Below are positions 8,560 to 63,869 of a stretch of DNA of 64,000 nt, in pieces; position 1 is the stretch's first letter; the number at the start of each line of letters is the position of its first letter. This stretch comes from a virus (lineage: Duplodnaviria; Heunggongvirae; Uroviricota; Caudoviricetes), in IMG/VR virus record IMGVR_UViG_3300028833_002727; one strand, given 5' to 3'. The position numbers and the translations under genes are program-made. The notes under the pieces were generated by a model. It saw only the letters and a list, made by a program, of their open reading frames with translations, ran no database searches and was not told where the DNA came from.

Positions 8560-9606
8560 ATGTCTAAAGTAATTAACGAAAATATATTAAGAAGTATCAT
8601 TCGTAATGCGTTGAATGAAGCAGTTGATGAGTTGAACTTATATCACGGCACAAATGCTGATTTTGATAAGTTCGATTTTGCTTACCTATCTTCTGGCTGG
8701 GGCCAACAAGCATATGGTTATGGCTTTTATTTAACAACCAGTTATGATGCTGCAAAGGATTATGCATATGATGCTAATCATGGACAAGTGATGGAAGTAG
8801 AAGTGCCTGATGGGAAATATCTAACTGATGTTAGTATAAGCAAGGCTGAAGCAAACCGCATAGCGCGTATTTTCTTTAAATACATGACTGAAGAGAATGA
8901 AGATACTCGTGATAGTTATTCTACTGAAGAAGAGAAACGTTGTTTTTGGGATTACGAAGTGGATTATGTACGCCGTTGTAGCACTGGCACCTATGTATAT
9001 GGTACAATTGCTTCACTAATGGGCAGCGACAAAGATACTTCAGAATTTTTACATGACAAATGTGGCTATGTTGGATTAAAGATAAGGGACAGATATAACG
9101 CCGGAAAAAAGACGCCAATTACATATGTTATATTCAACCAAAATGATATTAAGATATTGAGGAAAACCCACGTTAATGAAAAAGTTGACAAATCAAAAGT
9201 TGATGAATTCCATAAAATATTTACATTTGGAAAATACAATGGACAAGAAAAGACTAAAGTTATACGAGAAGACCCTGAATATTGTGTGTGGTTATATAAA
9301 AAAATGAAATATTCACCATTTACTGATAAACAGCTTGGATTACTGGATGTATCATATTATAGAAAATATAAAATATTCCCAATTAAATCTAGAACAACAC
9401 CTAATTATGCACAAATAAAAGGTGTTTTAGTAAAGAATATGACAGCAGAACAATTATCATATGTATATGAGAATGGAACAGATGAATTTAAATGGCTAGT
9501 AAAACAAGAGCACACGAATCGTGGTTGGCATTATCACCCATACAAAAGGTATCCTGTTTTTCAGACGGATGATTTATACGAGAATATAGATAGCAGACTA
9601 CATTGA
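8560..9606 (+). CDS. ADP-ribosyltransferase-like (ART-PolyVal-like) protein with N-terminal tag and FGKY (DUF3820/ExoX-C-like) domain
   Basis: LYHGT...YGYGFYLT...AKDYA...YVIFN; FTFGKYNG; N-term INENILRSIIRNALNE. Confidence 0.7.
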   Translation: MSKVINENILRSIIRNALNEAVDELNLYHGTNADFDKFDFAYLSSGWGQQAYGYGFYLTTSYDAAKDYAYDANHGQVMEVEVPDGKYLTDVSISKAEANRIARIFFKYMTEENEDTRDSYSTEEEKRCFWDYEVDYVRRCSTGTYVYGTIASLMGSDKDTSEFLHDKCGYVGLKIRDRYNAGKKTPITYVIFNQNDIKILRKTHVNEKVDKSKVDEFHKIFTFGKYNGQEKTKVIREDPEYCVWLYKKMKYSPFTDKQLGLLDVSYYRKYKIFPIKSRTTPNYAQIKGVLVKNMTAEQLSYVYENGTDEFKWLVKQEHTNRGWHYHPYKRYPVFQTDDLYENIDSRLH

Positions 9607-9623
9607 TGTTAGGCAGTGGAAAA

Positions 9624-9657
9624 TAAAAAAGAGAACTTGGATGTTCTCTTTTTTTTT
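9624..9657. terminator. Bidirectional intrinsic terminator
   Basis: aaaaaagagaac-ttggat-gttctctttttt. Confidence 0.75.
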
Positions 9658-9916
9658 ATGTGTTTGAATCTATCACAACTTGTGATGGGATAGGTACATA
9701 GATACGTTTATAGAAATCGAGCATGGTTTCATCCGGGGATGCTTTCTCCATATACAAATCTGAATAACCATCAGTTGCAATACAGAAATATCTATCCCAA
9801 TTCCAAATACGTTTAATTTTACTCATAGGAATTAACCTATCACGTACCTGGTTCTTTTCACCATTGTCATAGCGATAGAATGAATTTTCAAAGTATAAAA
9901 AACAATCACTTGTCAT
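9656..9916 (-). CDS. Hypothetical protein
   Basis: ORF in operon. Confidence 0.55.
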   Translation of the reverse strand: MTSDCFLYFENSFYRYDNGEKNQVRDRLIPMSKIKRIWNWDRYFCIATDGYSDLYMEKASPDETMLDFYKRIYVPIPSQVVIDSNT

Positions 9917-10304
9917 TTTTCTTGAAGTATTTAAATGTTACGTTAATAAACAATATTGCAAGCGTACCAATAAACGCGGACATATATAAACCCGTACCAA
10001 CAAGACATCCAATTGCTGCGGAAGCCCATATTGTCGCTGCTGTCGTTAATCCATGAACCTTATCTTCGTGTTTAAATATGATTCCAGCACCAATAAAGCC
10101 GATTCCAGACACTATCTGTGCTATGACGCGGGAATTATCACCTCCAAATATTTCGGGCGACATGAGGCAAAAGAGAGTGGAACCAAGACAAATCAGTGAG
10201 ATTGTCCTGGAACCAACGGCTTTACCGCTATTTTCCCTTTCGATACCAATCATGTATCCGAAAAGAATTGATAATCCTATTTTAAACAGTACGACTAAAT
10301 CCAT
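9906..10304 (-). CDS. MgtC/SapB family membrane protein
   Basis: IGIERE...G.RT, RVIAQIVSGIGFIGAG, GLTTAATIW. Confidence 0.9.
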   Translation of the reverse strand: MDLVVLFKIGLSILFGYMIGIERENSGKAVGSRTISLICLGSTLFCLMSPEIFGGDNSRVIAQIVSGIGFIGAGIIFKHEDKVHGLTTAATIWASAAIGCLVGTGLYMSAFIGTLAILFINVTFKYFKKNDK

Positions 10305-20216: not shown

Positions 20217-22327
20217 AGTAAATCTTCTTCTTTTAAACCTAAATTATTTAAAAACCACTGTTTAATCCACCACATGTAGTCATATTCCTGGAAATATTTA
20301 AGTAAAAGATATTCTTTAAGTTCCATATCATTACCAGTTAAAATCTCTTTAATTCTGTCATAGTCAAAATATTTTATTTTTTCTATTTTGAAGTTAAATT
20401 CAGATATTGGAATATTTTCTTCAGTAATAACAGAATCTGAGTTAACAAATCTAAATCTACCAGTTTCGGTAAACTCACTCACAGGCACTTCGATAGAAAT
20501 TTTACATTCGTTTCCCCAAGCGTCTGGGTGAACGGTAAAGAATAACATATTGCCATGTCCTTCAGAATGATGCTGGTGTATGTCTAATTCTCCGGTAGCA
20601 AGAATATCCCCAAGGCTCATCATTCTTGTGTTATGATAGAGTTTAATGAAACCATTTTGTTGATTTTTCTCTATCTCCTCTAACTCCCACTCTTGGTTGT
20701 AGTGTTCTGTTAGATACCCGCTATTTGATATTTGTGTTAATGTTCTTGCACCACCTTCGATGAATATACTAGACATATCTCCACGTTGGTGTGTTACATC
20801 TAAAGCCTTGTTAATCAATACTAAACATTGTTCTGGGCTTGTATAATTGTCATCGTATTCGGTTAATACTTCGTATAGTGGACGTAAGCCAAAATCACTC
20901 CAAGCGTCACTACCATCAGGCATTTGCATCCAATCATATAAACCAACCATGTCTAATAACCTGAATATGTCCATTTTAACAAGTATTTTGCCATCTTTAT
21001 CAAGTTCGGCTTTATCACCATTTAACCCAAATGATACTTTGCATTCTTGTTCACCGCTATTATGGTAATTGTATATATCAATAATACCTTGCAAATCTTT
21101 GTCGCGGGTTTTAATCATGTATTCGTTATCGTAGTAGTCCAATTCTGGTTGAGATAGGAACATCGCTGTTTGTCCTTTATTTGGACCCATTTGATGAACT
21201 GCTTCTTCAGATAGATTATTCTTCTGCATGAACTCGTCTATGTATTCTTTTTCATTTGGGCTTAATACATATCTACCGTTCAATAAATCATTGATTAGGT
21301 ATTGTGGTGTAACATGTAATGTACATTCATAATCCCAATCCATGACTTCCATGTTTAGTTTATTTTTGATATATTCATTGATGTAACTATTGTCCAACGC
21401 GTCGTAACTCATCCATTGTGAGTGTCCTGCTAATTCAGTATTACAATCAAGTTTAATAGTGTTACGCATGATAATACCAATCCACTGATATACATATTTC
21501 TCTGGGAAACCGTCTAGATTACCTTGTTTGGTAAATACTTGTAACGCGCGTTGATATATTGATGGGTTAATTAGAGGTGCCCAGGTTTGTGTTTCTCTTC
21601 CCTGGTTCATATCTTCAACGAAATCGTTTAGAATAGACTCACAACTAATCTCTTCAGAATAATCTTCAAGTGTTGCTTCATTTAGAAGTCCGTTTTCATT
21701 AAGTTTCTCTTTTTTAATCTCAGCATATTCAAAGAAAGGCTTTCTTTGTTGATAACCATCATAGAGCCATTTTTGGAATACCGTATGAGGAACTTCAGTG
21801 ATTTTCCAGAAGCCATTCCAACCTTCGTTGTAATTAGCCATGTATGCCTCTTTTGCCTCTTGCTCATTTCTGAAACCTAACATGATTTTAGTTTCATCGA
21901 ACTTACCGTCAATCTTCTGGTCGATAGCGAAGATAGAATATGTATCGAAATTATCTCCAAGGAATACATCAACAGCATCACCATCATAACCAAGTGTATG
22001 AGTGAAATAGCCGTAATCATTCTTCATTCTAACTTGCCACTTGTTACCTTTTCTGTCTTTACCACTACGGATAGTGCCACGTGGGTTTTCTATTGCAATG
22101 TCGTAACCAAGGATACGCACTCTACCCATTTTGTAGTTGCCCGCACTCTTTTGTCCTTCTGTTGGATTTTTATCGGTTTCCTCACGTGCTTGTTGTATCT
22201 TTTGTTGAAGTTCTGAAACTTGATTTTCTGTGAAGAAAATACGTTTTTGCTTATTTTCGTTTGATACAAGTTGCTCTTTTATTGCTTCTATTTGTTTTTC
22301 TGTTAAGAATATTTGTTTTTTTGCCAT
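20213..22327 (-). CDS. Multi-domain protein: tag + InPase (polyvalent-protein inorganic pyrophosphatase-like) + unknown + C-terminal ART-like domain
   Basis: PTEGQKSAGNYKMG..IENPRG..R.G.D..G..W...M..DYGYF....G.DGD.VDVF; C-term KLYHNT...ILATG; N-term IFLTEKQ and IFFTENQ. Confidence 0.75.
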   Translation of the reverse strand: MAKKQIFLTEKQIEAIKEQLVSNENKQKRIFFTENQVSELQQKIQQAREETDKNPTEGQKSAGNYKMGRVRILGYDIAIENPRGTIRSGKDRKGNKWQVRMKNDYGYFTHTLGYDGDAVDVFLGDNFDTYSIFAIDQKIDGKFDETKIMLGFRNEQEAKEAYMANYNEGWNGFWKITEVPHTVFQKWLYDGYQQRKPFFEYAEIKKEKLNENGLLNEATLEDYSEEISCESILNDFVEDMNQGRETQTWAPLINPSIYQRALQVFTKQGNLDGFPEKYVYQWIGIIMRNTIKLDCNTELAGHSQWMSYDALDNSYINEYIKNKLNMEVMDWDYECTLHVTPQYLINDLLNGRYVLSPNEKEYIDEFMQKNNLSEEAVHQMGPNKGQTAMFLSQPELDYYDNEYMIKTRDKDLQGIIDIYNYHNSGEQECKVSFGLNGDKAELDKDGKILVKMDIFRLLDMVGLYDWMQMPDGSDAWSDFGLRPLYEVLTEYDDNYTSPEQCLVLINKALDVTHQRGDMSSIFIEGGARTLTQISNSGYLTEHYNQEWELEEIEKNQQNGFIKLYHNTRMMSLGDILATGELDIHQHHSEGHGNMLFFTVHPDAWGNECKISIEVPVSEFTETGRFRFVNSDSVITEENIPISEFNFKIEKIKYFDYDRIKEILTGNDMELKEYLLLKYFQEYDYMWWIKQWFLNNLGLKEEDLL

Positions 22328-22383: not shown

Positions 22384-23520
22384 ATGAAAGTTATTTTAAC
22401 TGAAAAACAATATAAAGAATATTTGCGTTTCCTACAGGATGAGCACAACCATAATCTCATCATGGAGGAATTCAAGGCTGAACTATCTCAAAAAGATATG
22501 CCAGCAGAATTCCAACAAATGAACGATTATATGTATGGTGATATACCACAGGGTAGATTGGATGCAATTCAAGATCGTTATACTAAAAACGGTTTTACAT
22601 ATAACAATAGTGCTAAACATCCTGAATTAGGACAACACAACGCAGAAGTTAAACCTAATGTTAGCGGTAGTGTATTCCCATTTGGTAATATCAAATTATC
22701 ACATGAAGTACTAATCGTTAACATGACTAGTGCATTACATTGCCCATCTGCAAAATTCTGTCCTATCGGAAAGAATGCGTGCTACGCTTTTAATGATGAG
22801 AGACGTAGAGAGTCATACTGGCAACGTAATGCAAGAAATGAAATCATGTTTGATATGGCAAGGGAAAATCCTGCTAAATGGAAATATATATTCTGGTTTA
22901 TTAGAAATTACATTGACAAAGCGCGTAACGCTGGCGTGATTGTTAGATATGTACGTCTAAACGAGGCTGGCGACTTTAAAACGGCAGATGACGTTCGCCG
23001 TTTTGATGAATTTGCTGCTGAATTGAAGAGAGATTACGGTATTGAGACACACGCATACACAGCAAATAAAGACTTGATTGATGCGATTTCACAAGTAAAA
23101 AACATCAATATAAATGCTTCAATTCCAGATATTCAGGGTGAAAAGGTTTTACGTCACTTCTATGGCGTAGAAGAGGAAATCCTTGCTCAATTACCAGATA
23201 CTCCGCTTAGGGATATTGCAACGCCTGAGTTACAGGAAGGCGGCAAATGGGGATTATATTACAAATGCCCATGTGATATTGCTGCTGGTGCAAGATGCTT
23301 TAATTGTCAAGTATGCTGGTTAGCAAAACCAGGTATCGCACCTAACGGTGAACAAGTACCACAATTTAATGTATTATGTAAAATACACGGTGCAGGTAAA
23401 AAACACTACAATCAAGCAAACGCTGATAAAAAAAGAGGTATGTCACCAGCACAACAAAAACTAAATATTAAGAAAATGGTTAAACAAGCGCGTCGCGCAG
23501 AAAATGAAGTAAATCAATAG
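22384..23520 (+). CDS. Phage Gp88-like Fe-S/Cys-cluster protein with N-terminal tag
   Basis: GNIKL, CPSAKFC...CYA, VRLNEAGDF, AYT, CPC...CFNCQVCW; N-term KVILTEKQ. Confidence 0.6.
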   Translation: MKVILTEKQYKEYLRFLQDEHNHNLIMEEFKAELSQKDMPAEFQQMNDYMYGDIPQGRLDAIQDRYTKNGFTYNNSAKHPELGQHNAEVKPNVSGSVFPFGNIKLSHEVLIVNMTSALHCPSAKFCPIGKNACYAFNDERRRESYWQRNARNEIMFDMARENPAKWKYIFWFIRNYIDKARNAGVIVRYVRLNEAGDFKTADDVRRFDEFAAELKRDYGIETHAYTANKDLIDAISQVKNININASIPDIQGEKVLRHFYGVEEEILAQLPDTPLRDIATPELQEGGKWGLYYKCPCDIAAGARCFNCQVCWLAKPGIAPNGEQVPQFNVLCKIHGAGKKHYNQANADKKRGMSPAQQKLNIKKMVKQARRAENEVNQ

Positions 23521-23531: not shown

Positions 23532-24053
23532 ATGAAAATAAAAAAAGATGTTTTAACGAGAATGATACGAGAAAGTATCACTAAGTGTTTGAATGAAACA
23601 ACGTTCAGTGATTTGGATGATATGGATAATTATAGCTGGCAATATTCAAGGGGTGAACGATTTGATATTTATGTTGATGGACATTTAGAATATCACGATA
23701 TTCCAGAAGAATCTGTTGATAGAATATGTGATATGCTTGAACGCGCTCCATATGAACAAAATATTGAAGTAAAAAGGATTGGTGAGTTATCTGAAGAACG
23801 TGATATTGATGCTGACACGTATTATGGCGGTGGTTTGCCAGAACCAGCACAACACGCTATGACTTATACACCAGAAAAAGAGGTTGCTGAAATATGCGAA
23901 CAAATGCGTCCATACGTAGACAAACTAGCGGACGTATTCAATAGTTATAGTCCAACAGTTCAAGGTGTTGATGATAAAGTATTTACATTACTTAACGGGT
24001 TCGATGAACTACCAAAGTTAGCAAAATTCTTTTCAACTACTGAAATAGACTAA
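23532..24053 (+). CDS. Tagged hypothetical protein
   Basis: N-term LTRMIRESITKCLNE. Confidence 0.7.
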   Translation: MKIKKDVLTRMIRESITKCLNETTFSDLDDMDNYSWQYSRGERFDIYVDGHLEYHDIPEESVDRICDMLERAPYEQNIEVKRIGELSEERDIDADTYYGGGLPEPAQHAMTYTPEKEVAEICEQMRPYVDKLADVFNSYSPTVQGVDDKVFTLLNGFDELPKLAKFFSTTEID

Positions 24054-38668: not shown

Positions 38669-39448
38669 ATGAAAAAGCAAACAATCAAACTAAATGAATC
38701 TCGATTGAGACAAATGATACGAGAAATGCTATTGAAAGAGACATCATACAGGGATTTGGCAAAAATATATGGTTATGATCCTGATGATTACGGTGCAGAT
38801 AAATCTATTTTATCAATGGATGATGATTATTATTATAATGGCGAAATACCTTTTGAAGATGACATAGAAAAAGAGATTAATAACATTACTTATGATAAGT
38901 TTGTTGATATGGTGGATAAAATGCGCGGTTCTAATAAATGGGACACTTTAGAGGCGTTAATTCATTCAAATCCAATATTCAAAAAATGGTATGAAAAAAT
39001 GACTAAAGACGCCGAAAAAGATGTTTCATGGCGTGCTTTTGAAAGAAATAAAAAAGAACAACTACATGACTTCAAAAGAGATGTTGATTATTTTGCACGA
39101 CATGATGCTAATTTGAATGTTCACAATTATCCATACTATGATGATCAGCCTCACATTGATTGGGCTGGACATGAAAATCCAAAGATAACCGAATCTAAAT
39201 TGAGAAAGATTATTAAAGAAAGCATTAAAAAGACATTAAAAGAAAGTGTAATTAAATCCAGGGAATTTTTAGATGCTAGCAAAAATGTATGCTATGGTGA
39301 AGACGAGATGAGTTTTTTTGCTGCAAATTATTTAAGGAAAGAATTCAGACGTTTTCCTAATATTGCCCAAGCAAAAGCGTGTGCTCAAGAAATGCTTCAA
39401 CGAGAAAAACAACGAAGGGCAGAAGAAATGTCTGGGATAAGATATTAA
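38669..39448 (+). CDS. Tagged hypothetical protein
   Basis: IKLNESRLRQMIREMLLKE and KITESKLRKIIKESIKKTLKE. Confidence 0.75.
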   Translation: MKKQTIKLNESRLRQMIREMLLKETSYRDLAKIYGYDPDDYGADKSILSMDDDYYYNGEIPFEDDIEKEINNITYDKFVDMVDKMRGSNKWDTLEALIHSNPIFKKWYEKMTKDAEKDVSWRAFERNKKEQLHDFKRDVDYFARHDANLNVHNYPYYDDQPHIDWAGHENPKITESKLRKIIKESIKKTLKESVIKSREFLDASKNVCYGEDEMSFFAANYLRKEFRRFPNIAQAKACAQEMLQREKQRRAEEMSGIRY

Positions 39449-43401: not shown

Positions 43402-43737
43402 ATGAGTAGAAAAGTACATTTAACAGAATCTCAAGTAGAAGAGATTGTAAATAAATTGAATGAGGATAACATTGAAGAGGGTAATGAACTCAATGTAAAT
43501 TATCAAAAACCGCCAACTGGCGTTGCAAACGTTCAAGATATGACAAATCAAATGACTGCTGCTAAAAAAGCCGCTCCTGGCGCTAAAGTAAATATGGTTG
43601 TTTCAGGCGAGGATTTGAATGTGATGGAAAGTTGTTACACTAAAAAACAAATTAAAGAGGCAAAATTGCGCTATTTGACTGAACATTCAACTTCATACAG
43701 TAAAAAAGATTTCAAGAACAGATTTATTAAGAAGTAA
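43402..43737 (+). CDS. Small tagged head-associated protein
   Basis: KVHLTESQVEEIVNKLNE; TATTTAT at 43376. Confidence 0.7.
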   Translation: MSRKVHLTESQVEEIVNKLNEDNIEEGNELNVNYQKPPTGVANVQDMTNQMTAAKKAAPGAKVNMVVSGEDLNVMESCYTKKQIKEAKLRYLTEHSTSYSKKDFKNRFIKK

Positions 43738-44912
43738 TGCGAAACATTATCATAAATAAAGAACAAGAACGCATACTTCTAGAAGCAAACCAACAGGATT
43801 ACGTATTATCTAAGGTTTCAAATAAAATCAAAAATGATATTGCAACAGATAATACGCCGCTTTCTTGTTTACCAATACCCCATAATGTGAATAAAAAGGT
43901 TATTGCCACTATTCTCACTAACGCTTATTTTAATGCACGTGATAATTTCAGCGATGACATTGAATCATTCCCTATAGATAAAGTTATTAACAAGTTAGAC
44001 AAGTTGGTTGCTATTTGTCAAAAGAAAGAAGAGAAGATACATAACGAACTGGAAAAGTTATGTGTCGATATTGCTACGTCTTATTTTAACTCAGATGAGT
44101 TAGCTGATTTAACTGTTGAATGTCGATTAGTCATGGACTTGTCACAAGATGATTTTCATATCGAGCCAACTAATGGTGTTGATGATGAGATTTCTAATCT
44201 TGATGAATATGATAAAAACGATATTGCAATTACTAATAGAAAAATCGCTAATACTATTGTTATGGGAGGCGCGCTATCCTTGTATGATAAATTACAAGAA
44301 ACGTTTATTTCTGAACTATTCAAATTAGACGAAGACTTACCACATTTGTATAGTAAGATATTAAAAATAAATGAATACCTTACATATGTTAGTGATGAAA
44401 CGATTACAGATAGAGATAACAAACAAAGTGGTTGTGTTAAAATAACGCTTGGTGGTGAAGAAGGCGATGAGATTGTTGCTGTTGGTACAATATTCCCATT
44501 CTTACTAATTGAGACTTTCCGTGGTTATTTAGAATTGATGTCTGATAATATGCTACCAAATAACGATTTTGAATTAGATAACATTACCGATAAGGCGGAT
44601 ATTCTAATGGATGAACCATGGTATATGATGTTAGGTAGAACAATATGGGATAAGATTGTTAGAAATGAAGATGATGATTTGACAATCATTAGTGAATTAT
44701 TTAAAATGGATGATAAATCATTCAATAAACTATTAACAAATATAATTGTTGGTACACATGACGCTGAGTCAATGATAGATAAGTTACATCGAATGGCAAG
44801 ATATAATTATGATTATGCTGATTTCGAAAAGGATTTAGCAAGAAGAAGAGAAGAAAATAATTTAATGATTGATGGTGGTGGTTTTATAGATAACGAAGAA
44901 TATAATAAATAA
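43737..44912 (+). CDS. Tagged hypothetical protein
   Basis: IIINKEQERILLE; TAATG-coupled. Confidence 0.75.
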   Translation: MRNIIINKEQERILLEANQQDYVLSKVSNKIKNDIATDNTPLSCLPIPHNVNKKVIATILTNAYFNARDNFSDDIESFPIDKVINKLDKLVAICQKKEEKIHNELEKLCVDIATSYFNSDELADLTVECRLVMDLSQDDFHIEPTNGVDDEISNLDEYDKNDIAITNRKIANTIVMGGALSLYDKLQETFISELFKLDEDLPHLYSKILKINEYLTYVSDETITDRDNKQSGCVKITLGGEEGDEIVAVGTIFPFLLIETFRGYLELMSDNMLPNNDFELDNITDKADILMDEPWYMMLGRTIWDKIVRNEDDDLTIISELFKMDDKSFNKLLTNIIVGTHDAESMIDKLHRMARYNYDYADFEKDLARRREENNLMIDGGGFIDNEEYNK

Positions 44913-48277: not shown

Positions 48278-48286
48278 CCATTAGTT

Positions 48287-51564: not shown

Positions 51565-52287
51565 ATGGATAGTAAAAAACAAATAGTAGAAATAAAAAAA
51601 GGGAACGTCGGTTCTGGCTTATTATTAGAAAATGACGGATATATGTCATTGGATATGCCAGAAAACAAAATGCTGAAAGAATCAGTTGAGGCATTCCAGG
51701 GTGGTATGGCACATGAGTTGCCACGTCCTTTTGTTGTTTCTGCCGTATTCCAAAAATACGGTATTCAAAACGCTAACGGACGTATATATCCAGAAAAGAT
51801 ATTGAAAAGAGAAGTTGAGAAATATCAACAGGCAATTAAAGAAAGACGCGCTTTCGGTTGTTTAAATCACCCGGATTCAAGTGATTTGGATTTGGAAAGA
51901 ATATGTCTTTTAATTACTGAACTTCATTGGGTAGGGCATACATTGGTTGGTAAAATGGAAATTCCTATTACTGAAGGTTTCCGCAGAGATGGTATTTGTT
52001 CTAATCTTGCGGATACTTTAGCACAATGGTTAATTAGTGGCTTGCGTGTTGGTGTATCAAGTAGAGCATTAGGCGGCGTACAGCAAATCGGCGGTACATT
52101 GGTTGTTGATGATACCCTTGAACTAATTTGTTGGGATGCTGTTGGACAACCATCAACTCCAGGTGCATACATTGATACAAACGACGATGCTTTAACACCA
52201 TTCATTGAATCAAAAGAAGCACCTGATGGTAAACAGGTTATTAAAGAGGACAAATTTAGTAAATTCGATGGGTGGTTAAACGATTAA
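51565..52287 (+). CDS. Prohead core protease (T4 gp21-like)
   Basis: QNANGRIYP, LNHP, GVSSRALG, WDAVGQPSTPGA; TATTTAT at 51536. Confidence 0.9.
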   Translation: MDSKKQIVEIKKGNVGSGLLLENDGYMSLDMPENKMLKESVEAFQGGMAHELPRPFVVSAVFQKYGIQNANGRIYPEKILKREVEKYQQAIKERRAFGCLNHPDSSDLDLERICLLITELHWVGHTLVGKMEIPITEGFRRDGICSNLADTLAQWLISGLRVGVSSRALGGVQQIGGTLVVDDTLELICWDAVGQPSTPGAYIDTNDDALTPFIESKEAPDGKQVIKEDKFSKFDGWLND

Positions 52288-52324: not shown

Positions 52325-52343
52325 GTTTTAATGTAGTATTTAT

Positions 52344-52880
52344 ATGTATATGGATAATAAAAAATTAAAAAATATAATAAAAGAAAGTATCCTAGCAGAA
52401 CTTGGTGAGGATGGTAGCAAGTTTAAAGCAACTATTGAATGGGTACAAGATAGGTATAATAAAGCTAATCAAGAACTATTCAATGGGCGACTTGGCGCTT
52501 GTAATTTCAAGATTGCTGATTTAGGTGTTAGAACAAATGGAAGATTTACACTAGATACACCATCAAACTATCTTTATTACGATCCAAAAGCAAACAATCA
52601 TTTATACGTTGTCCCATATATTGGTGCTAGTAGAATTTACATCAATAAAGAGAATTTTGTTAAATATTGTAATCCAACCATTTTGCTGAATTCAAATCGT
52701 TCTGCTACTGAAGAATCAAGATATACAACATTGGTTCACGAAATGTGTCATTATTATACTTACATGTTCGGGTTTGTTCCAAAGCAAGCACATGGTAGAG
52801 AATTTAGAGATATTGCATCAATCATAGCATATAGAAGTAATGGCGCAATAACAGTGCAACGGCTTGCAAGCGCAGAATAA
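52344..52880 (+). CDS. SprT-like zinc metalloprotease with N-terminal tag
   Basis: N.ELF.G.L, TLVHEMCH, HGREF; LKNIIKESILAE. Confidence 0.8.
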   Translation: MYMDNKKLKNIIKESILAELGEDGSKFKATIEWVQDRYNKANQELFNGRLGACNFKIADLGVRTNGRFTLDTPSNYLYYDPKANNHLYVVPYIGASRIYINKENFVKYCNPTILLNSNRSATEESRYTTLVHEMCHYYTYMFGFVPKQAHGREFRDIASIIAYRSNGAITVQRLASAE

Positions 52881-53254: not shown

Positions 53255-55036
53255 ATGAACAAAGGTTTTGAAATAAATGGTACTATGGATTTAGGACACA
53301 TGAGTCCATTAGAACAACAAGAAAATGTTATGGAAAAGAAGATAAATGAACAAACGTTAAGACAAATAGTTCGTGAAAGTTTAAAAGAACTATCTAACCA
53401 AACAATTGGTAGTTATATGCGTGCAACAAAAAACCAAAGAAGGGATAGACAATATGATGCAGGCAAATGGCACGCGATAAAAACTGTTAACGACAAATAT
53501 AGTTTTTGTGTCACATTGGATCTTGGCGAGGAAGTATTATTCACCTTGGGTATGGACAATGAGGAATTCTTCATTCTTGTTGATGTAGATGAACATATGG
53601 AAAATAAAGAACCATATACTTTGAAGTTAATGCCTAACAATCCAAGACGTATGTTAGATGGTACTCCAATAACTGAAACAACGGTTGGGTATGTTATTGA
53701 TAACCTACGCGCAGGTGAAAGGATGAAACTTAAAGGCTTATGCCAATCCGCTATAGAATTGAATCAAGCATTAAGAGGTAAACAAGCACAAATTGCTGAA
53801 TCTGTTAAAGAGAAAGCGGTAAGTAAATCACAACAACGTTTTTTCGGCATGGTTGATGCATATAAAAAAGGTGAGTTGGATAATCCTTCAAAATCTGTTA
53901 AAGATGCAGCTGATGGTATGTCAATGAAACAGGTAAAAGATTTTGCGAAAACAAAACACAAAGGTTTACCAAACCATGTAGATGAATCTGTCCTTCGTAG
54001 TATAATTAGAGAAACATTAGAACAAACATGGGCTGACAGAGAACCAAAAGATAAAATGGATAACATACGTCTTCAACGTTACCAGGGGTTAGTTGAAATC
54101 GTTGAATACTATCTAAATCAATGCGAAGCTGGAAATGGTGTTGAATTGTCTGATAAACAACGTGAGCAACTTGAAGATGCTTGTAATAAACTATGTGTGT
54201 TTGGTGAAATTGGTGAAAAGTGGGCAAATCTTGGCAGAAGTATTTTGAGTGGAGATGAAGATGTTGCAGAAGAGAAACCATTTACTGATGAAAATGTTTA
54301 CACAATGGATGACTGGAGGCGTGATGGTTCACTCAAAGTACAGATAGGGCAGTTAATAGCACCTGAAGTATATTGGCAATTAAGAGATAGTGTACCGCCA
54401 ATGTCAGACGGAGGTTGTTTCCAACCTGGTGAAGCATACGACCATGACTGGAGAACTGGAAAAGCACTTTATCAAACATTCACGCGCGAGGGCGATAATT
54501 ATTATAGATACAAAGGATTACAGCCAGCAAGTAGGTGGGGATTAGAAGAAAGTGAATTAAAAAAAACAATAAGAGAAACAGTACAAATGCATTTAGTAAA
54601 CGTACTTGGTAAATATACACAAGGAAAAACATCAAGCAAAGAGGCAAACAAGGCTATCATGGATTTAGCAAATAGTTCAAATAAAAAAAAAGTGAATGAA
54701 GATGTTGATGCTCGTACTGCCGCATATTTCGACAAAATTAGAAATGGAGAATATGAGACTTTAGAGTTTGAAGGAAAAATATTTAGTGTCCCTCCACAGT
54801 TAAAACAAATAGCACAGAAAACTGCCGACAAATTTGGGGTTAGGGTATCAACATATGTAGGAGAAGACGAAAGAAAACTTTATTATGGCTTATTAGTTGA
54901 TGTTCCAGAAAATTGTGTTTTTCCAACATTATCCAATAACATTAGGTTATTTTTATTAGATTATGATATACATTATATAGGTTGGTACAAGAGAGGCATC
55001 TTTTTTTACCAGCAAATAATGAAAAAACCATACTAA
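53255..55036 (+). CDS. Multi-tag internal head polyprotein containing a DUF3008-like module
   Basis: Three E..LR.I[IV]RE.L-type tags; KAVSKSQQRFFGMV...VKDFAKTKHKGLP. Confidence 0.7.
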   Translation: MNKGFEINGTMDLGHMSPLEQQENVMEKKINEQTLRQIVRESLKELSNQTIGSYMRATKNQRRDRQYDAGKWHAIKTVNDKYSFCVTLDLGEEVLFTLGMDNEEFFILVDVDEHMENKEPYTLKLMPNNPRRMLDGTPITETTVGYVIDNLRAGERMKLKGLCQSAIELNQALRGKQAQIAESVKEKAVSKSQQRFFGMVDAYKKGELDNPSKSVKDAADGMSMKQVKDFAKTKHKGLPNHVDESVLRSIIRETLEQTWADREPKDKMDNIRLQRYQGLVEIVEYYLNQCEAGNGVELSDKQREQLEDACNKLCVFGEIGEKWANLGRSILSGDEDVAEEKPFTDENVYTMDDWRRDGSLKVQIGQLIAPEVYWQLRDSVPPMSDGGCFQPGEAYDHDWRTGKALYQTFTREGDNYYRYKGLQPASRWGLEESELKKTIRETVQMHLVNVLGKYTQGKTSSKEANKAIMDLANSSNKKKVNEDVDARTAAYFDKIRNGEYETLEFEGKIFSVPPQLKQIAQKTADKFGVRVSTYVGEDERKLYYGLLVDVPENCVFPTLSNNIRLFLLDYDIHYIGWYKRGIFFYQQIMKKPY

Positions 55037-55220
55037 AAACATTAAATAATAAAAAAAAAACACTTTTTTTTGCAAAAATATGCATTTTTTTTACATTGAT
55101 GTGTATTTTTCAAAATTGCATTGTATTTATAGGTAAAGAATTTCACAAATGTTGTAATTGATATTTATTATAACAATAAACAACGGTAAATAATAATCGA
55201 AAAAAGATTAGAACAATAAT

Positions 55221-56753
55221 ATGAGTAAGAAAAACAATACGGCACAAAAATCTGCTCTTGAAATTGAACAACTTTCAAAGGCTTTGAGAGAAGGTACTGA
55301 AAAAACTTTACGTAATCTTCTCAAAGAAGCAATTGAAGACATCGTTGACAACGATGAGGAATCACAAGATGCAGAACCTATCGAAGATGATAGTTATGAG
55401 GTACAAGATGTCGAAACTGACGAAACTCCAAGTGATGCACCTGAAGAAGGTGAACCAGAGACATCTGGCGAAGGCGAGGAAGCATCTTCAGATGACGAAG
55501 GTGGAGCCGACGAATGGGGTGATTACGACGAGTTCAAGGTAGGAGATAATGAATATGATTTCACTGGCGTGGATGGAGATTTAGCTCTCAAGATTTATCA
55601 AGCACTATCAGATGACGACCAAATCAGTGTTAAGAAAGATGATGAAGGTAACATCAAGGTTAGTGATGGTGAAACTGGCGCAGGAGTAGTGATCGAACTA
55701 ACACCTGAAGATGGTGGTGCAGAGAATGGCGAAGAAGGTATTTCTGATAAACTTCCTGGTGACGAAGGTGCAGAAGGTGATGCTGATGGCGACATTGACA
55801 TTCAACTTGAACCAGACGCAGAAGGTGGTGCAGATGATGAAATCGAAATCGACTTAGGTGACGGTTTAGATGATGAACCATCTGATGATGAACTTAACGA
55901 AGATTTAGGTTACACTGACAGTTATCAGAAAGATGTTATGCCAGGTTTAAAAATGAACGAACCAGCAGATAAAAAAGCAACTTACAGTATGGATGATGGT
56001 GCTCCAGAAGGTAACAAAAAACCTTGGGCTGGTAAGCACACTGAAAAAGACTACAAAGAGACACATACTGATTTAGCAGAAGGTTGTGAAGGTGGTGCTT
56101 GCGAAAAAGAACTTGAGGAAGGTGCTATGAGCACATCAAGTCAATCAGTAGCAAAAGAAACACACACTCCAACATCTGAACCACGTGCTAACAACGCACG
56201 TCAAGTTGCAAAATTAGTTCACAATGGTGGTAAACAGTTAGACGAGGCAAAAGCATTAAAAATCCTTGAAGCAGCAAAGGCCATTCAAGCAGAAAATAAA
56301 CAAATTAAAGCCTTAGCAGGTAAGTTAAGAAAAAGTCTTATGGAGGCTGCAACTCTTAACATGAACTATGGTAAAATTGTTACTTTGTTAGTTAACGAAA
56401 GTACTACAAAGGCTGAGAAACAATCAATCATTGAACGTTTCAATAAAGTTACCACAGTTAAAGAAGGTGCAATTCTATTTGAATCAATCAAACGTGAATT
56501 GAACGAAAGTCACAAGAGTGATGCTGCAAACGTTCTAAACGAACAAATTTCAGCAGAGTCTTCAAGACAAATCAACGAAACTACATTCTATCAAACAAGT
56601 GCTAACAACAAGAGTATTTCTTTAATGGAAAGAATGGATAACCTAGGTAGAAACTACTCAAAAGGTGGCTACAAACCAATTAACGAAAATACTAGTAAAG
56701 GGCTTGACTTAATGAATAGAATTAGTGGACTCCAAACAAAAAGACAAGTATAA
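55221..56753 (+). CDS. Prohead core scaffold protein (T4 gp22-like position)
   Basis: Acidic plus coiled coil, many LNE/INE sites, directly upstream of MCP; TATTTAT at 55124 and 55162. Confidence 0.7.
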   Translation: MSKKNNTAQKSALEIEQLSKALREGTEKTLRNLLKEAIEDIVDNDEESQDAEPIEDDSYEVQDVETDETPSDAPEEGEPETSGEGEEASSDDEGGADEWGDYDEFKVGDNEYDFTGVDGDLALKIYQALSDDDQISVKKDDEGNIKVSDGETGAGVVIELTPEDGGAENGEEGISDKLPGDEGAEGDADGDIDIQLEPDAEGGADDEIEIDLGDGLDDEPSDDELNEDLGYTDSYQKDVMPGLKMNEPADKKATYSMDDGAPEGNKKPWAGKHTEKDYKETHTDLAEGCEGGACEKELEEGAMSTSSQSVAKETHTPTSEPRANNARQVAKLVHNGGKQLDEAKALKILEAAKAIQAENKQIKALAGKLRKSLMEAATLNMNYGKIVTLLVNESTTKAEKQSIIERFNKVTTVKEGAILFESIKRELNESHKSDAANVLNEQISAESSRQINETTFYQTSANNKSISLMERMDNLGRNYSKGGYKPINENTSKGLDLMNRISGLQTKRQV

Positions 56754-56791: not shown

Positions 56792-58672
56792 ATGCAATCA
56801 CAATTCTTATTAGAAAATCATTTAGGTGAAGCAGCGCTTCAACAACAAAAACAAGCTCGCGAACTTATTAGAGAACGTTGGAGTAACCTTGGTTTTACTA
56901 GAGGTTTAGAGGGTTATATGGAAGATAACATGGCAACTCTTTTCGAAAACGAGGCTCAAATGATGCTTTCAGAATCAACTGACGCACAAAACAGTGGTTC
57001 ATTCGAAACAGTTGTATTCCCATTAGTACGTCGTGTATTCTCACGTCTATTGGCTAACGACATCGTATCTGTTCAAGCAATGAACATGCCTATTGGTAAA
57101 TTGTTCTTCATCCTTCCTGTTACTAGCGAAAGACAATGGGATTTCGACGACATCGCACAAGCACTTTCTGCTTTGATGAGCGGACAAACTGTAGCAGGTA
57201 AACACGTTGGTTTGATGGGTTACCAAAGAACTAACCGTAACGAATGGGACGAAAACGGTGAAGGTACAAAACAAAACCGTTATTACTTACCAGACGAAGT
57301 AGTTAAACCTACTAGCAATGTTGAACCAAAAGTAACAGAGTACTTCAAGAAATCTCTTTACGATATGTTCTATAACGATGGTTTGTTCGACCAATCAAAA
57401 GGCCAAATCCATCTAAGAGCAGGTGAATTAGAGGAAATCGACAGAATCGAATTCGACGGTTCAGAAGTTGCACACGTAAGTGGCGCTCCACGTGCATTAG
57501 CATTCGATGGTACTGTTCGTAGTATCAAAGTTAAATTATCAGGTTTCAGCCCAGTAAACGCTGGTAGACTTATCGGTCCTGACGGTAACGAAATGGACAC
57601 TGAGGCTTTCTTGGCATCATTGAAAATTGTTACTAAAACTGAAATCGCAGCAGCTACAGGCGAAACAACAACAACTTCATTCAAGGAGTTAGAACCAGTT
57701 CACTTCCGCGTTGTAACACAACAATATGGCCGTGCAATGGTTCAATACGATAGCATCTGCAATGCTAAAGGCGAAATCTTACTTGAAATCGACTTAACAA
57801 AACCAACTGTACAAATGGGTAAAACTATTGACGGTTACATTGGTGTTGACGCAGACGCAATCGGTGATGTAAACGAAACATTCTTAGCAGTTTGGGCAGA
57901 ATACGACAGCCTTGAACTTGAAACTGAAATCGGTGAAGTTTCATTCAAACTTACAGACGTAACAGTTTCTGTTGAGGAAAGAAAACTTCGTGCAACCTGG
58001 TCACCAGAATTAGCACAAGACGTTGCTGCATTCCACAACATCGACGCTGAAGCAGAGTTAACTGCTATCCTTTCAGAGCAAATCGCTGCTGAAATCGACC
58101 GTGAAATCCTCCGTGACTTGCGTAAAGCATCTCCATGGACAATCAAATGGGATTACAATGGCTGGCGCCGTCAAGCAGGTTTCTCAACAAACTACACTCA
58201 GAAAGACTGGAACCAAACTCTTATGACTAAGATTAACCAACTTTCTGCTCAAATCCATAAAGCAACTTTACGTGGTGGTGCAAACTTCATCGTAGTTTCT
58301 ACTGAAATTTCAGCCGTTCTTAACGACTTAGAGTACTTCCATGTAACAGACGCTAACGCTGAAGCAGTTCAATATTCAATGGGTATTGAAAAAGTTGGTG
58401 CTCTTCAAGGACGTTATGAGGTATTCGTAGATCCATACAGTCCAGCACAATCATTGATTATGGGTCACAAGGGTGATAGTTTGTTAGACACTGGTTACAT
58501 CTACGCTCCATATGTACCAATGCAATTAACTCCAACTATCTATAATCCATTCAACTTCGCACCAGTAAAGGGTATCATCACTCGTTACGCTAAGAAGATG
58601 GTTAACAACAGATATTATGGTTCATTGGTAGTTAATGGACTTCAAACTTGGGACATCAACGAACTCCGTTAA
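56792..58672 (+). CDS. Major capsid protein (T4 gp23-like)
   Basis: PLVRRVF, VSVQAM..P.G, RKLRATWSPELAQD..AFH.IDAEAELT.ILS..I..EIDREI, YAPYVP, P.KG..TRY. Confidence 0.95.
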   Translation: MQSQFLLENHLGEAALQQQKQARELIRERWSNLGFTRGLEGYMEDNMATLFENEAQMMLSESTDAQNSGSFETVVFPLVRRVFSRLLANDIVSVQAMNMPIGKLFFILPVTSERQWDFDDIAQALSALMSGQTVAGKHVGLMGYQRTNRNEWDENGEGTKQNRYYLPDEVVKPTSNVEPKVTEYFKKSLYDMFYNDGLFDQSKGQIHLRAGELEEIDRIEFDGSEVAHVSGAPRALAFDGTVRSIKVKLSGFSPVNAGRLIGPDGNEMDTEAFLASLKIVTKTEIAAATGETTTTSFKELEPVHFRVVTQQYGRAMVQYDSICNAKGEILLEIDLTKPTVQMGKTIDGYIGVDADAIGDVNETFLAVWAEYDSLELETEIGEVSFKLTDVTVSVEERKLRATWSPELAQDVAAFHNIDAEAELTAILSEQIAAEIDREILRDLRKASPWTIKWDYNGWRRQAGFSTNYTQKDWNQTLMTKINQLSAQIHKATLRGGANFIVVSTEISAVLNDLEYFHVTDANAEAVQYSMGIEKVGALQGRYEVFVDPYSPAQSLIMGHKGDSLLDTGYIYAPYVPMQLTPTIYNPFNFAPVKGIITRYAKKMVNNRYYGSLVVNGLQTWDINELR

Positions 58673-61123: not shown

Positions 61124-61314
61124 AATTTTTTCATTTTTGTAAATTTGTTATTATTCCCTTCATATTTCACTATGAAGTAATAAATACCCCTTTATTATAA
61201 AATATCACAATATAAATGAAAAAAACCATATTTTTCTCTATAAAAGTGTGTATTTTTACATGTTTTTAGGCGTTTCAAGGTATTTATTGTTAAGAATTAG
61301 TATTTATAAACACT

Positions 61315-62343
61315 ATGTTAACAGAGAAATTAAAGAAACATATAACAGATTTAATATATAACTTATTATCTGAAGGTATTCAGGATGCGAGTGATGAAGA
61401 ATTACTTGCAAAAATAACTTCAGGTGAAAAAGTTTTCCACCGCCCAAAAGACGCTTATGGTTCTGACCCGTTGGCTACCATAAAAAGTTTGTTCAGACGT
61501 GGTTTCTCGCGTGAATATACAGGTAGTAACGGTGGGAATATGTATGGTACAGGCGTTTATAACGTTTACAATTTGAGAAGTAGTAATGAAAAAGCGCGTG
61601 GATATGGTAGATACATATTACAATCATACGTAGTAGATGGTTATAAGAACTTCTTAATATTCAATAGCGACATCGCTAAAAAATATTACGGAGAAAACTG
61701 GTGGATTGGTAATCAAATTAAATTGTTAATGCCACCACAAATGGCGAGTAGAGTGTTACGAATGGTTGGGCATAATTTGTATATGAACGATTTCAAATCA
61801 CTCGATAAAAAAACTGCATCTATTGCTTATCAGATTTTCTCAATTGTTGGTGAATCTGGTATGAGGCAAACAAAAATACGTGGCATTATATATGACGGTG
61901 GACATGATGGTTCATGTGCGTTCGTTAGGGATTTTAGTGATGTTTGCCCTTATGCTTATAGTGACGATAACGGTAAAACCTGGAAAAAAGGTATAACAAG
62001 AGAATTGATGCAACATGTGATGGGTAACATTGATACGGAATTTGAATTGAAAAACAGAATTGACTCTGCTGGCAATCGTAAATTCGATGATGTTGCGAAG
62101 AAATCAATTAACGGTTTTGCTATTGTTTACAAACATAACAAAGTTAATTATTATTCTGTTGAGACACGTAGTTTAATATCAAACGTTTGGTTTGATGAGG
62201 GTATGAACTTTGATGAAGATGGATACGCTGAAGTGGTTTACCAAGGCTCTCCATTGTGTGTTCACAATGATGGTGGCGGTGAGTATTCAATCACTGACAT
62301 GGACGGCGCATACTTATGCAAAATAAGTGATTTAGAAATGTAA
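61315..62343 (+). CDS. ART-like domain plus WG-repeat protein with N-terminal tag
   Basis: VFHR...GF...GNMYGTGVY...YGRYIL; C-term GFAIV...WFD...FDEDGYAEV; LKKHITDLIYNLLSE. Confidence 0.65.
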   Translation: MLTEKLKKHITDLIYNLLSEGIQDASDEELLAKITSGEKVFHRPKDAYGSDPLATIKSLFRRGFSREYTGSNGGNMYGTGVYNVYNLRSSNEKARGYGRYILQSYVVDGYKNFLIFNSDIAKKYYGENWWIGNQIKLLMPPQMASRVLRMVGHNLYMNDFKSLDKKTASIAYQIFSIVGESGMRQTKIRGIIYDGGHDGSCAFVRDFSDVCPYAYSDDNGKTWKKGITRELMQHVMGNIDTEFELKNRIDSAGNRKFDDVAKKSINGFAIVYKHNKVNYYSVETRSLISNVWFDEGMNFDEDGYAEVVYQGSPLCVHNDGGGEYSITDMDGAYLCKISDLEM

Positions 62344-62354
62344 GAAATAAATAT

Positions 62355-63869
62355 ATGCAAGAGGCTTTTAGATTTAATAACGCACAAGCAAGAAACGACT
62401 ACTTCCGTAAACAAGCTGGAGGTGATGCTGCATCTGAAAATAAACCAGATGAGTTAGGACGTTTAAAAATATCATACAGTGAAGGTACTGTACCAGTTGT
62501 TGCTGGCGGTAAAGTTACACAATTACCTGTACACAATATCTTTCTTTATAATTTACAACCAAATGATGTACAAGAAATTATACGTGAATTAACAGCACAA
62601 AAGAAAGAAACCAGAACACAAAATGCTTTTGTTCCTAGAAGAAACGTAAGGGATTGTGTACAAATCCGTGTTGGTGAAAACGATATGGAACAATGGTTGC
62701 AAACTGGTATGCATGTAGTTCAAAACATTCTACGCCAATCAGGTGTTTATGATGAACAAGAAATCAATGACATGCCGGGTTACATTTCAAACGTTGCTGT
62801 TAGTAAGGCACAAATGAGACAAGAATATCAAAATGCTGAAAATAAAGCAATTGATGTATGGTTGGCATATTTAAAAGATATTAACAACCCTGAAGTTGTT
62901 TCTAAATTACAGGCTTATCAACGTGTATATCGTTATTTAGATGTTCAATATGGACATGTAAAAAGTGCAAAGAATGTTGCTGCTATTTTAGCAACAGATT
63001 CTAATGCAACATTTATTTTAACAGCCGCAGAATGGAGAGATTTCAACAGATACGTTAAACCGAACGCTAAACGTTTCTATGTATTAGTCCCATTGATTGA
63101 TAACGTTGATAAAAGTAAATTGGATGCGGTAATTGATAAATGTGGATGGGGCGGCACAGCATATTGTGATTTACCATTCCAAGTTCAACAGTTAGTTGAT
63201 ATGAAATGTCAGGAATTAGATATTGCTCCCCCATTTGCACATTACATTGAATTTGATATTTCAGACACTGAAGTTATTCCTGGAAAAGAGGATATATTCA
63301 ATACACAAATTGGTTTAGCAAATAACTTGACTGGAGAATTAAACGACAAAGCCAAAGAAGATTACGCTAAAAAACACGGTAATGAGGATATGCCTGAGGA
63401 TCAGGAAATGATGCAAAGAACGAAACAAGCAGCAGAATTTATTGTAAACTTCTGTCAAAAACAACATATTCCTTTCAAATATAATGAAACTGATAGCCCA
63501 TCTACAATTTTAGTTAATGGCTTAGTGGCTTATTATAAATCAGTTGCTGAAGCAGATGCTAACATTGATAAAGATACAAACAAAGAGATATTTGCAAAGA
63601 ACGCAACATTGTTTACATTGATTATAACTAATTTAGCGTTAGATAAAATTTCAAACTTCGGACATCCGGTTGAATATACAAAACAAGAGGCTGCTGAATT
63701 CCTAAAAAGTGTTACATATGTATTGAATAGATTAGAGCCAGCACTTGCTCTTCAACCACAGGCTGTTGAGGTTAATGAATCCGCAATGCCAAAATCAATA
63801 CGAAGTAAAGATGAAATTTTACAGCAGTTCCGCAAATTCTGTAAACAAATTGGTATAAGAATTATATAA
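62355..63869 (+). CDS. Protein with ArdC-N-like ssDNA-binding domain
   Basis: SAKN...I....NATF......W....R.VK..AK...VLVP...FDISDT. Confidence 0.6.
   Translation: MQEAFRFNNAQARNDYFRKQAGGDAASENKPDELGRLKISYSEGTVPVVAGGKVTQLPVHNIFLYNLQPNDVQEIIRELTAQKKETRTQNAFVPRRNVRDCVQIRVGENDMEQWLQTGMHVVQNILRQSGVYDEQEINDMPGYISNVAVSKAQMRQEYQNAENKAIDVWLAYLKDINNPEVVSKLQAYQRVYRYLDVQYGHVKSAKNVAAILATDSNATFILTAAEWRDFNRYVKPNAKRFYVLVPLIDNVDKSKLDAVIDKCGWGGTAYCDLPFQVQQLVDMKCQELDIAPPFAHYIEFDISDTEVIPGKEDIFNTQIGLANNLTGELNDKAKEDYAKKHGNEDMPEDQEMMQRTKQAAEFIVNFCQKQHIPFKYNETDSPSTILVNGLVAYYKSVAEADANIDKDTNKEIFAKNATLFTLIITNLALDKISNFGHPVEYTKQEAAEFLKSVTYVLNRLEPALALQPQAVEVNESAMPKSIRSKDEILQQFRKFCKQIGIRII

Follow-up and report, generated by a model that had tools for sequence, protein, structure and literature searches.

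A 64,000-nucleotide stretch of IMG/VR virus record IMGVR_UViG_3300028833_002727, here called the window, encodes a series of otherwise unrelated proteins that share a recurrent peptide of about 20 residues, which we refer to as the tag. This tag is probably an expanded form of the signal by which phage T4 targets proteins to its capsid and marks them for cleavage, about twice as long as the T4 signal and far more widely used. The source record is a single virus contig of 118,756 bp (CheckV completeness about 34%, about 35% G+C, coding density 94% with the standard code), of which the window represents bases 8101–72100. It encodes a gp23-type major capsid protein, a T4-type large terminase, a portal, a sheath, a family-B DNA polymerase, and a gp21-type prohead protease, and it derives from an uncultured giant T4-like phage of gut Bacteroidota. 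The nearest relatives are IMG/VR contigs of 200–410 kb, some of which have terminal repeats.

One portable tag on unrelated proteins

An initial annotation of this DNA had described two classes of recurring motif, A and B. A profile search of the kind it suggested, by way of iterated hidden Markov models (HMMs) and a joint alignment (A1), showed that 19 proteins of the whole contig carry the tag in a total of 26 copies. These are 15 A-type and 11 B-type copies (E <1e-3), all in real gene frames, and the tag profile found no match in reversed or unrelated control sequences. The motif is indeed present at every site that had been listed, although the strict patterns first given for it are too narrow, matching one site for A and none for B. 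With loosened cores, A gives 6 matches against 0.005 expected in shuffled sequences, and B gives 8 against 0.15. Within the window we count 16 tag copies on 11 proteins. Its tag sites, together with two degenerate N-termini, are the following.

8560..8649, + strand: A-type tag, residues 1–24 of w8560, an ART-PolyVal ADP-ribosyltransferase (ART); HMM E 3e-7
22163..22324, − strand: two tandem B-type tags, residues 2–55 of w20213 (InPase domain, 704 aa); HMM E 7e-7 and 4e-6
22384..22467, + strand: B-type tag, residue 1 of w22384 (GP88 domain); HMM E 7.5e-7
23532..23615, + strand: A-type tag, residue 1 of w23532 (173 aa, no known domain); HMM E 1.3e-6
37263..37352, − strand: A-type tag, residue 3 of w36765 (36765–37358, 197 aa); HMM E 1.3e-8
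37647..37799, − strand: two internal B-type tags, residues 133–183 of w37359; HMM E 5.5e-8 and 3e-7
38678..38767, + strand: A-type tag, residue 4 of w38669; HMM E 1.3e-8
39173..39262, + strand: second, internal tag, residue 169 of w38669; HMM E 2.2e-8; the sole fit to the strict A pattern
43402..43491, + strand: B-type tag, residue 1 of w43402 (111 aa); HMM E 3.4e-8; TATTTAT at 43376–43382
43737..43800, + strand: degenerate B-like N-terminus of w43737 (391 aa)
52344..52427, + strand: A-type tag, residue 1 of w52344 (SprT-like metalloprotease); HMM E 5.6e-7
53330..53419, + strand: tag 1 of w53255, residues 26–55, after a second leader of 25 residues; HMM E 1.7e-7
53966..54055, + strand: tag 2 of w53255, residues 238–267, at the module junction after DUF3008; HMM E 6.6e-8
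54530..54619, + strand: tag 3 of w53255, residues 426–455, at a module junction; HMM E 5e-4
61315..61380, + strand: degenerate A-like N-terminus of w61315

Tagged genes outside the window are g5312 (three copies), g7579, g73174, g77133, g77651, g82277, g94435, and g108226. The N-termini of w43737 and w61315 had been counted as tagged, and the motif can be seen in both by eye, but both are degenerate and fall short of significance by HMM. A clear B tag is present in the L005 orthologue of w43737; the orthologues of w61315 in L005 and L031 are similarly degenerate.

The joint consensus of the tag reads h-x-L-T-E-S-x-L-+-x-I-I-+-E-S-I-x-x-h-L-x-E (h, hydrophobic). It spans about 20 residues that are modelled as a helix. 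Classes A and B are both real, yet they constitute one family and not two, because they fall in one register in alignment A1 and are interchanged on orthologous cargo: orthologues of the ADP-ribosyltransferase bear an A-type, a canonical, or a B-type tag directly ahead of the same conserved domain start. The canonical tag, which unites the A and B halves, occurs in relatives. Information content drops sharply right after the closing h-L-x-E. Of 105 database matches, a set with a bias toward the query, 80 continue with A, S, G, or T. In its helical hydrophobic moment the tag only slightly exceeds shuffled sequence (0.81 vs 0.69). No Pfam or PHROG model covers the tag, we found no published description of the motif in the literature, and a tblastn search with a 40-aa tag against 50,697 GenBank phage records returned chance matches only.

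Aligned identical residues use the same codon in 0.52 of pairs, compared to 0.456 expected from codon usage. Since codon choice is nearly free, selection acts on the peptide and not on the DNA. This result bears on the idea that the tag is a repeated DNA cassette that serves recombination or translation start, or that it is left over from the common ancestry of paralogues. Such an origin might seem plausible because tags adjoin a repeated promoter box, and T-even phages are known to shuffle genes via promoter-proximal repeats (PeSL). However, in addition to the variable synonymous codons, there are no promoters at the internal tag copies, the cargo domains come from different Pfam families, and the tag is kept in the uncultured phage LR756508, from which the promoter box TATTTAT is absent. 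We therefore regard this explanation as extremely improbable: a DNA repeat or recombination cassette is contradicted by codon diversity and by conservation of the tag in the box-less LR756508, and diverged paralogues are ruled out by the unrelated Pfam domains and module families described next.

Many of the tagged proteins are likely enzymes directed against the host. Pfam searches on the cargo identified ART-PolyVal twice, InPase, SprT-like, GP88, DUF3008, and a weak GNAT match below the cut-off. ART-PolyVal starts at residue 25 of w8560 (1e-9), GP88 was found in w22384 (4e-9), and SprT-like in w52344 (1.6e-10). The InPase match of w20213 is strong (3e-47), and the PHROG matches of this protein are annotated as virion structural, minor head, and DarB-like. 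NUDIX occurs on one tagged database match. The modules that flank tags in 240 listed database matches represent 141 families that are unrelated by BLAST. Among ART orthologues, the identity of the tag is decoupled from that of the cargo, with 43% vs 93% in one protein and 90% vs 60% in another. The tag is portable between unrelated cargo.

Three of these genes deserve brief description. The second ART-PolyVal protein is g6656 (G000:C1:6656-7558). The product of w22384 (22384–23520) contains a cysteine cluster, C-x5-C-x6-C, near residue 120 and more cysteine pairs near residue 295, a pattern that may bind metal. Finally, w61315 (61315–62343) includes a Y-G-x-G-x-Y-like stretch and may encode another ART-like enzyme, in which case the contig would have three or more tagged ARTs.

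A common leader on diverse proteins could also be recognized by a modifying enzyme, for example a radical S-adenosylmethionine (radical-SAM) enzyme, similar to the leaders of ribosomally synthesized and post-translationally modified peptides. One tagged 108-aa cluster does carry the JGI name 'pyruvate formate-lyase activating enzyme-like', and in relative G002 a weak radical-SAM match adjoins tagged open reading frames. On the other hand, neither this contig nor the complete relative G005, which has seven tags, contains a Radical_SAM match, and one of five records alone reaches the Pfam cut-off for this domain. The tag also lacks the Cys, Ser, or Thr pattern that is typical of such substrates. 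A recognition leader of this type is very improbable, and a radical-SAM maturase was dropped as a candidate since it is not consistently present among the records examined.

Head genes, promoter box, and a possible route into the head

Genes of the window assigned to head formation are listed here, together with a second acidic protein.

51565..52287, + strand: prohead protease, T4 gp21 family (Peptidase S77), assigned by Pfam PF03420, PHROG, and PDB 5JBL
55221..56753, + strand: acidic scaffold-like protein w55221 in the gp22 position, assigned by synteny and composition; tag-like helix at residues 26–44 (nt 55281–55370)
56792..58672, + strand: major capsid protein, T4 gp23 family, assigned by tblastn to gp23-type capsid proteins; predicted maturation site after L59-S60-E61 (nt 56966–56974)
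41063..42703, + strand: second acidic, [LIVM]-x-E-rich protein w41063, candidate core or scaffold protein

The gp21 homolog that had been proposed at 51565 is well supported. The protein matches Pfam PF03420 (S77) at 6e-20 (72 bits against a curated cut-off of 27), the PHROG head maturation protease at 4e-32, and PDB 5JBL at 6e-12. It contains His (in L-N-H-P) and Ser (in G-V-S-S-R) at two aligned 5JBL positions that are Ala in the crystallised T4 chain. We take these two to be the catalytic residues, and judged by its sequence the protease appears to be catalytically intact. The order protease, acidic protein, capsid protein corresponds to that of T4 genes 21-22-23 and was found in 46–56 of 80 relatives. 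In the window, the tagged genes w52344 and w53255 lie between protease and scaffold; they are absent from that spot in the loci of the 80 relatives.

The capsid protein carries the same motif that closes the tag. Near residue 60 it reads L-[IL]-x-E followed by [AS]-T, a sequence that the 40 displayed N-termini of the alignment share and that the ≥60% consensus of 80 retains. The predicted cut site lies four residues ahead of the block that aligns to T4 gp23 from residue 82 onward. T4 gp23 loses a propeptide of 65 residues (PMC5694885), and in the T4 record this propeptide ends with L-T-E65, followed by A. The L-x-E|[AS] motif of the capsid protein thus sits at the T4-equivalent position.

The scaffold role of w55221 was assigned by synteny and acidic composition alone: Asp and Glu make up 23% of its residues (22% in T4 gp22), and BLAST detected no similarity between the two proteins. 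Its tag-like helix scores E 1.2e-5 with the tag HMM in this genome. The likeness of this helix to the tag is suggestive only, and we keep it as a lead and not as a true tag copy, given that the orthologues of w55221 are not significant by HMM. The other acidic protein, w41063, has no Pfam or PHROG match and shows weak similarity to w55221 (E 0.03). According to the initial annotation, [LIVM]-x-E triplets saturate the scaffolds and the N-terminus of the capsid protein. This was an overstatement: w41063 reaches z = 3.2, w55221 2.1, and the capsid protein 0.3, in a proteome that as a whole shows mild enrichment.

Beyond the window, directly after the portal gene, G000:C1:76210-77133 codes for a helical protein of 307 aa. 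With 18 [LIVM]-x-E triplets (z = 4.2), it ranks second in the proteome for enrichment in this motif, and it may be a prohead core protein in the position of T4 gp67/gp68. The portal gene and the gene for this protein are followed immediately by two B-tagged genes, in what is the position of T4 genes 67/68.

Many tagged genes are preceded by a TATTTAT box. The box belongs to an extended promoter-like motif, in which a T-run is followed after about 12 nt by [AG]TATTTAT[TA], and is usually located 20–30 nt before the ATG. Such boxes in the window include the following.

8534..8540, + strand: TATTTAT box, 20–26 nt before the ATG of w8560
22336–22342 (+), 22349–22355 (−), 38207–38213 (−), 41043–41049, 43376–43382, 51536–51542: TATTTAT boxes
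52337–52343, 55124–55130, 61180–61186 (−), 61281–61287: TATTTAT boxes

The association between tag and box that had been noted by eye held up to statistical analysis, in that TATTTAT lies ≤100 nt upstream of 12 of 22 tagged genes compared to 23 of 117 untagged genes (p = 0.002). Counted by same-strand unit, 21 of 22 tagged genes are headed by the box, as are 66 of 117 untagged genes (p = 2e-4). The tagged genes of relatives have the box at −24 to −29 relative to the ATG; the extended motif is kept in close relatives (L085–L104). Besides the protease, scaffold, terminase, portal, and sheath genes, the DNA polymerase gene is also headed by the box. It therefore marks a non-early gene class and not a virion-only class, and the previous reading of TATTTAT as exclusively late went too far. 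The reported absence of tags from early genes could be confirmed: the minus-strand early array contains none in 33 genes, compared to 22 in 106 elsewhere (p = 0.002).

These observations suggest how the tag may work. Tagged proteins would be made from the phage's own non-early TATTTAT promoter class, alongside the head genes. The N-terminal helix of about 20 residues would dock the cargo on the prohead core, most likely on the acidic scaffold in the gp22 position or on core proteins encoded beside the portal, and the capsid shell would close around the docked proteins. The gp21-type serine protease would then cut behind the Glu of the terminal h-L-x-E and free the mature enzyme inside the head; the two earlier h-x-E triplets within the tag would probably be cut too. 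Fused multi-module proteins that contain a tag at every junction would be cut into separate modules in the same step. At infection the freed cargo would leave with the DNA, including ADP-ribosyltransferases, the InPase protein, the SprT-like protease, possibly GNAT, and many proteins of no recognizable function.

Several points weigh against this proposal. We infer docking, packaging, cleavage, and injection of the tagged proteins alike. Homology between the tag and the T4 capsid-targeting sequence is undetectable, with no tag HMM match in T4 at E ≤ 1. A profile comparison by hhalign between the tag and the N-terminus of the scaffold gave P = 2.7e-4 with a probability of 42%, and, as mentioned, the tag HMM is not significant on the scaffold orthologues. 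The cleavage motif by itself is weak evidence because h-x-E is frequent in any Glu-rich amphipathic helix. With TATTTAT also at the DNA polymerase gene, a shared box is no proof of a virion destiny, and some tagged genes are found near replication genes (g94435) or beside the sheath gene (g108226). The T4-style interpretation put forward in the initial annotation is partly supported. It agrees with the data in each sequence-level prediction examined; its two classes need to be merged, internal copies taken into account, and the claims of saturation and late-only expression toned down.

The same helix could instead be a handle for docking or oligomerisation with another shared partner, for example a chaperone, the tail or baseplate, a membrane, or a phage compartment, in which case the tag would stay on the protein. 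The generic Glu/Lys-rich character of the helix and its hydrophobic moment, hardly above that of shuffled sequence, would fit such a role, as would the location of some tagged genes next to sheath or replication genes. Furthermore, tags are no more alike within than between genomes, so that the partner need only be some conserved protein. What speaks against this alternative is that the conserved part ends precisely with h-L-x-E and a small residue, a match to the predicted cut site of the capsid protein. In addition, tagged genes are placed between protease and scaffold and directly after the portal, the tags of LR756508 cluster round the head module, and the cargo repertoire is that of packaged effectors (PMC5512222). 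We consider another partner unlikely.

Tag position and fused modules

Most tag copies in this genome start within the first ten residues, and in five complete relatives all 20 of the 20 top matches begin 0–6 residues after Met. The remaining copies are internal and occur at the junctions of fused modules. A simple N-terminal signal alone does not account for the many internal copies. In AlphaFold (AF2) models the tag is helical and appears hinged to its surroundings. For w8560, the model comprises a helix at residues 7–23, a predicted local distance difference test (pLDDT) score below 50 at residues 18–23, where the tag joins the ART domain, and an ART core with scores of 80–98. For w53255 (predicted template modelling score 0.36), the three tags are modelled as helices at low-confidence junctions between confident modules. 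Tag 1 forms a helix at 32–44 (pLDDT about 45), tag 2 a helix at 244–261 after a segment with pLDDT <50 (234–245), and tag 3 a helix at 432–455 after another such segment (427–430).

The protein w53255 is a mosaic of five modules, most of which match no known domain. Its modules are found elsewhere as separate genes that begin with a tag (P0412, P0334, P0353, P0348). The stand-alone homologues P0412 and P0334 begin with tag 1 of w53255, and P0353 is a separate 102-aa protein that consists of tag 2 and the next module. We can explain the internal tag copies by fusion of modules that elsewhere stand alone behind a tag. Some internal tags even retain the former start Met. This architecture is common: 91 of 120 longer database matches examined contain two to four tags, about 100–140 residues apart.

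Tags at module junctions also raise the possibility that the tag is a polyprotein junction or propeptide that is cut not by the prohead protease but by the tagged SprT-like metalloprotease, or autoproteolytically in the way suggested for polyvalent proteins, with targeting, if any, left to something else. The abundance of multi-tag proteins and the mosaic structure of w53255 are consistent with this scenario. The SprT-like protease is itself tagged and adjoins the S77 protease, fusions of the type tag-SprT-ART exist, and self-processing of the MPTase type was proposed for P1 DdrB (PMC5512222). However, most tag copies, both here and in relatives, stand at residue 1 of proteins with a single domain, which leaves nothing to be cut apart. 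An orthologue of the SprT gene is absent from the loci of 80 relatives (about 10 kb each side of the capsid gene), many of which are still tagged, and h-x-E specificity is not known in SprT-family metalloproteases. We judge processing by one of these routes to be quite unlikely, and cutting by the prohead protease, as in the T4-type proposal, remains the preferred explanation.

A second common N-terminal leader of about 25 residues was observed at 53255–53329 of the window and in 14 database homologues (P0317, P0321, P0322, and others). It precedes the tag or the DUF3008 module and is restricted to the w53255 family. Its pattern, M-N-x-x-I-E-I-N-G-x-M-[ND]-L-G-x-x-S-P-L-E, also ends in h-x-E.

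Related packaging systems and the spread of the tag

The closest parallel is phage T4, whose internal proteins are described as diverse anti-defence proteins with capsid-targeting sequences of 10–19 residues that are removed by gp21 and suffice to package foreign proteins (PMC3012670, PMC9026906, PMC5694885). Asp in place of the Glu at the T4 cleavage site prevents processing and leaves targeting intact (PMC9026906). Like the leaders of IPI, IPII, and IPIII and the propeptides of Alt and gp24, the tag is an N-terminal leader on otherwise unrelated, fast-evolving proteins and ends in hydrophobic-x-Glu. Both systems also include a gp21-family protease in the 21-22-23 gene order and an ADP-ribosyltransferase among the cargo; T4 Alt, which is an ART and loses a short propeptide, is a packaged precedent (PMC9026906, PMC5694885). 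The differences concern length, number, and location. The tag consists of 20–22 helical residues compared to 7–19 residues for T4 leaders, it is found on about 20 proteins in a third of a genome and on thousands in metagenomes where T4 has a handful, it also occurs at the junctions of fused modules, and it is known from sequence alone. No sequence homology of the tag to T4 leaders was detected. The tag is likely to represent the T4 capsid-targeting principle in a longer, far more numerous, and also internal form that is not homologous to the T4 leaders. When N-termini in the T4 record NC_000866 (L119, L120) are compared, M-x-K-x-x-E-h-h-x-E with A or S next describes those of gp22, gp24, IPII, and IPIII alike. 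Visually, the N-termini of gp22 and gp24 resemble the tag, and the gp24 propeptide could pass for a condensed version of it, but the tag HMM shows no statistical similarity.

Giant phages of the phiKZ type (phiKZ, SPN3US) also possess a diverged gp21-type protease that cuts after Glu, and a role in directing proteins into the prohead has been inferred for their propeptides; an identical N-terminus is found in the paralogues gp53 and gp54 (PMC5694885). However, these propeptides are mostly longer than 100 residues, follow no single portable consensus, use [AS]-x-E sites, and belong to another head lineage.

The cargo recalls the polyvalent proteins described by Iyer, Burroughs, Anand, de Souza, and Aravind in 2017, which are predicted to be packaged and injected with the DNA (PMC5512222). 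Domains common to both are ART-PolyVal, InPase, SprT/MPTase-like, possibly GNAT (a weak match here), and, on one database match, NUDIX. In those proteins 2–15 domains are joined in a giant polypeptide that is anchored by MuF or portal-associated domains, whereas the genes described here mostly code for one recognizable domain with its own short tag. The protein w53255 and the tag-SprT-ART fusions are intermediate forms toward polyvalent proteins.

Short portable peptides that direct unrelated enzymes into a shell of the HK97 fold are familiar from the cargo-loading peptides of encapsulins and from tags derived from the P22 scaffold. Those peptides differ from the tag in that they are usually C-terminal, bind the shell or the scaffold directly, and are not removed by a maturation protease. 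In phage P1, which represents a different head lineage, the Dar proteins are loaded in an ordered hierarchy and are not known to have a common short leader. The P1 system is nevertheless similar in that its antirestriction proteins, which are anti-defence enzymes, enter the head while it is being assembled (PMC9024508, PMC12810830), and a DarB-like PHROG is among the matches of the InPase protein w20213.

The tag is abundant in metagenomes and occurs in relatives of 300–480 kb. A 40-residue tag query matched at least 1,808 clusters of 63–202 aa and at least 801 longer ones, nearly all without a name or Pfam domain. The tag profile detected 3–11 copies in each of five complete close relatives. 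Five more distant records yielded 0–4 copies, with matches in four of them. The uncultured 484-kb phage LR756508 contains 15 copies by HMM. Nine of these were read out, and each begins at the start Met or no more than five residues from it. Of the 15 tags, 12 are encoded on the strand of the capsid gene and no more than 32 kb away from it. The same HMM found no match in T4, in E. coli jumbo phage EJP2, or in Microcystis phage Mel-JY01. Mean tag identity is 0.25 within genomes and 0.30 between genomes, and we could discard the idea of genome-specific tag 'dialects' that co-evolve with a receptor.

The cultured Flavobacterium phage vB_FspM_immuto has two tag copies, each of them starting at residue 1 of a separate hypothetical protein, immuto35A_176 and immuto35A_190. 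In its genome (MW353176.1, L109), 102836–103315 and 113144–113902 code for unrelated proteins with the common leader M-K-K-S-Q-L-R-x-I-I at residue 1. These two proteins make the proposal bench-testable in a cultured system.

More tentatively, a single portable helical address label may be in use across T4-like giant phages, from gut and rumen Bacteroidota phages to LR756508 and the cultured Flavobacterium phage, the capsid proteins of which are only about 40% identical. Such a label might load dozens of interchangeable effectors per head, equivalent to unbundled polyvalent proteins whose modules are re-separated by the head protease, and it may derive from or mimic the N-terminal helix of the scaffold. 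If this were the case, more than 2,600 'hypothetical' clusters from gut, rumen, and aquatic metagenomes would share the property of traveling inside a phage head and would be candidate first-minute effectors against host defences. The T4 capsid-targeting principle would scale to dozens of cargo proteins and would be linked to the polyvalent-protein repertoire, and the tag would be a short sequence to try for loading foreign proteins into Bacteroidota phages.

Two minor features of the window may be added. Just upstream of the prohead protease, at 44924–51530, two very large multi-domain glycosyltransferases of 1117 and 918 aa (GT2, GT92, GT7, TOD1/MUCI70) are encoded together with a hexapeptide acyltransferase. 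At position 50853, window and genome record differ by a single base (T vs G).

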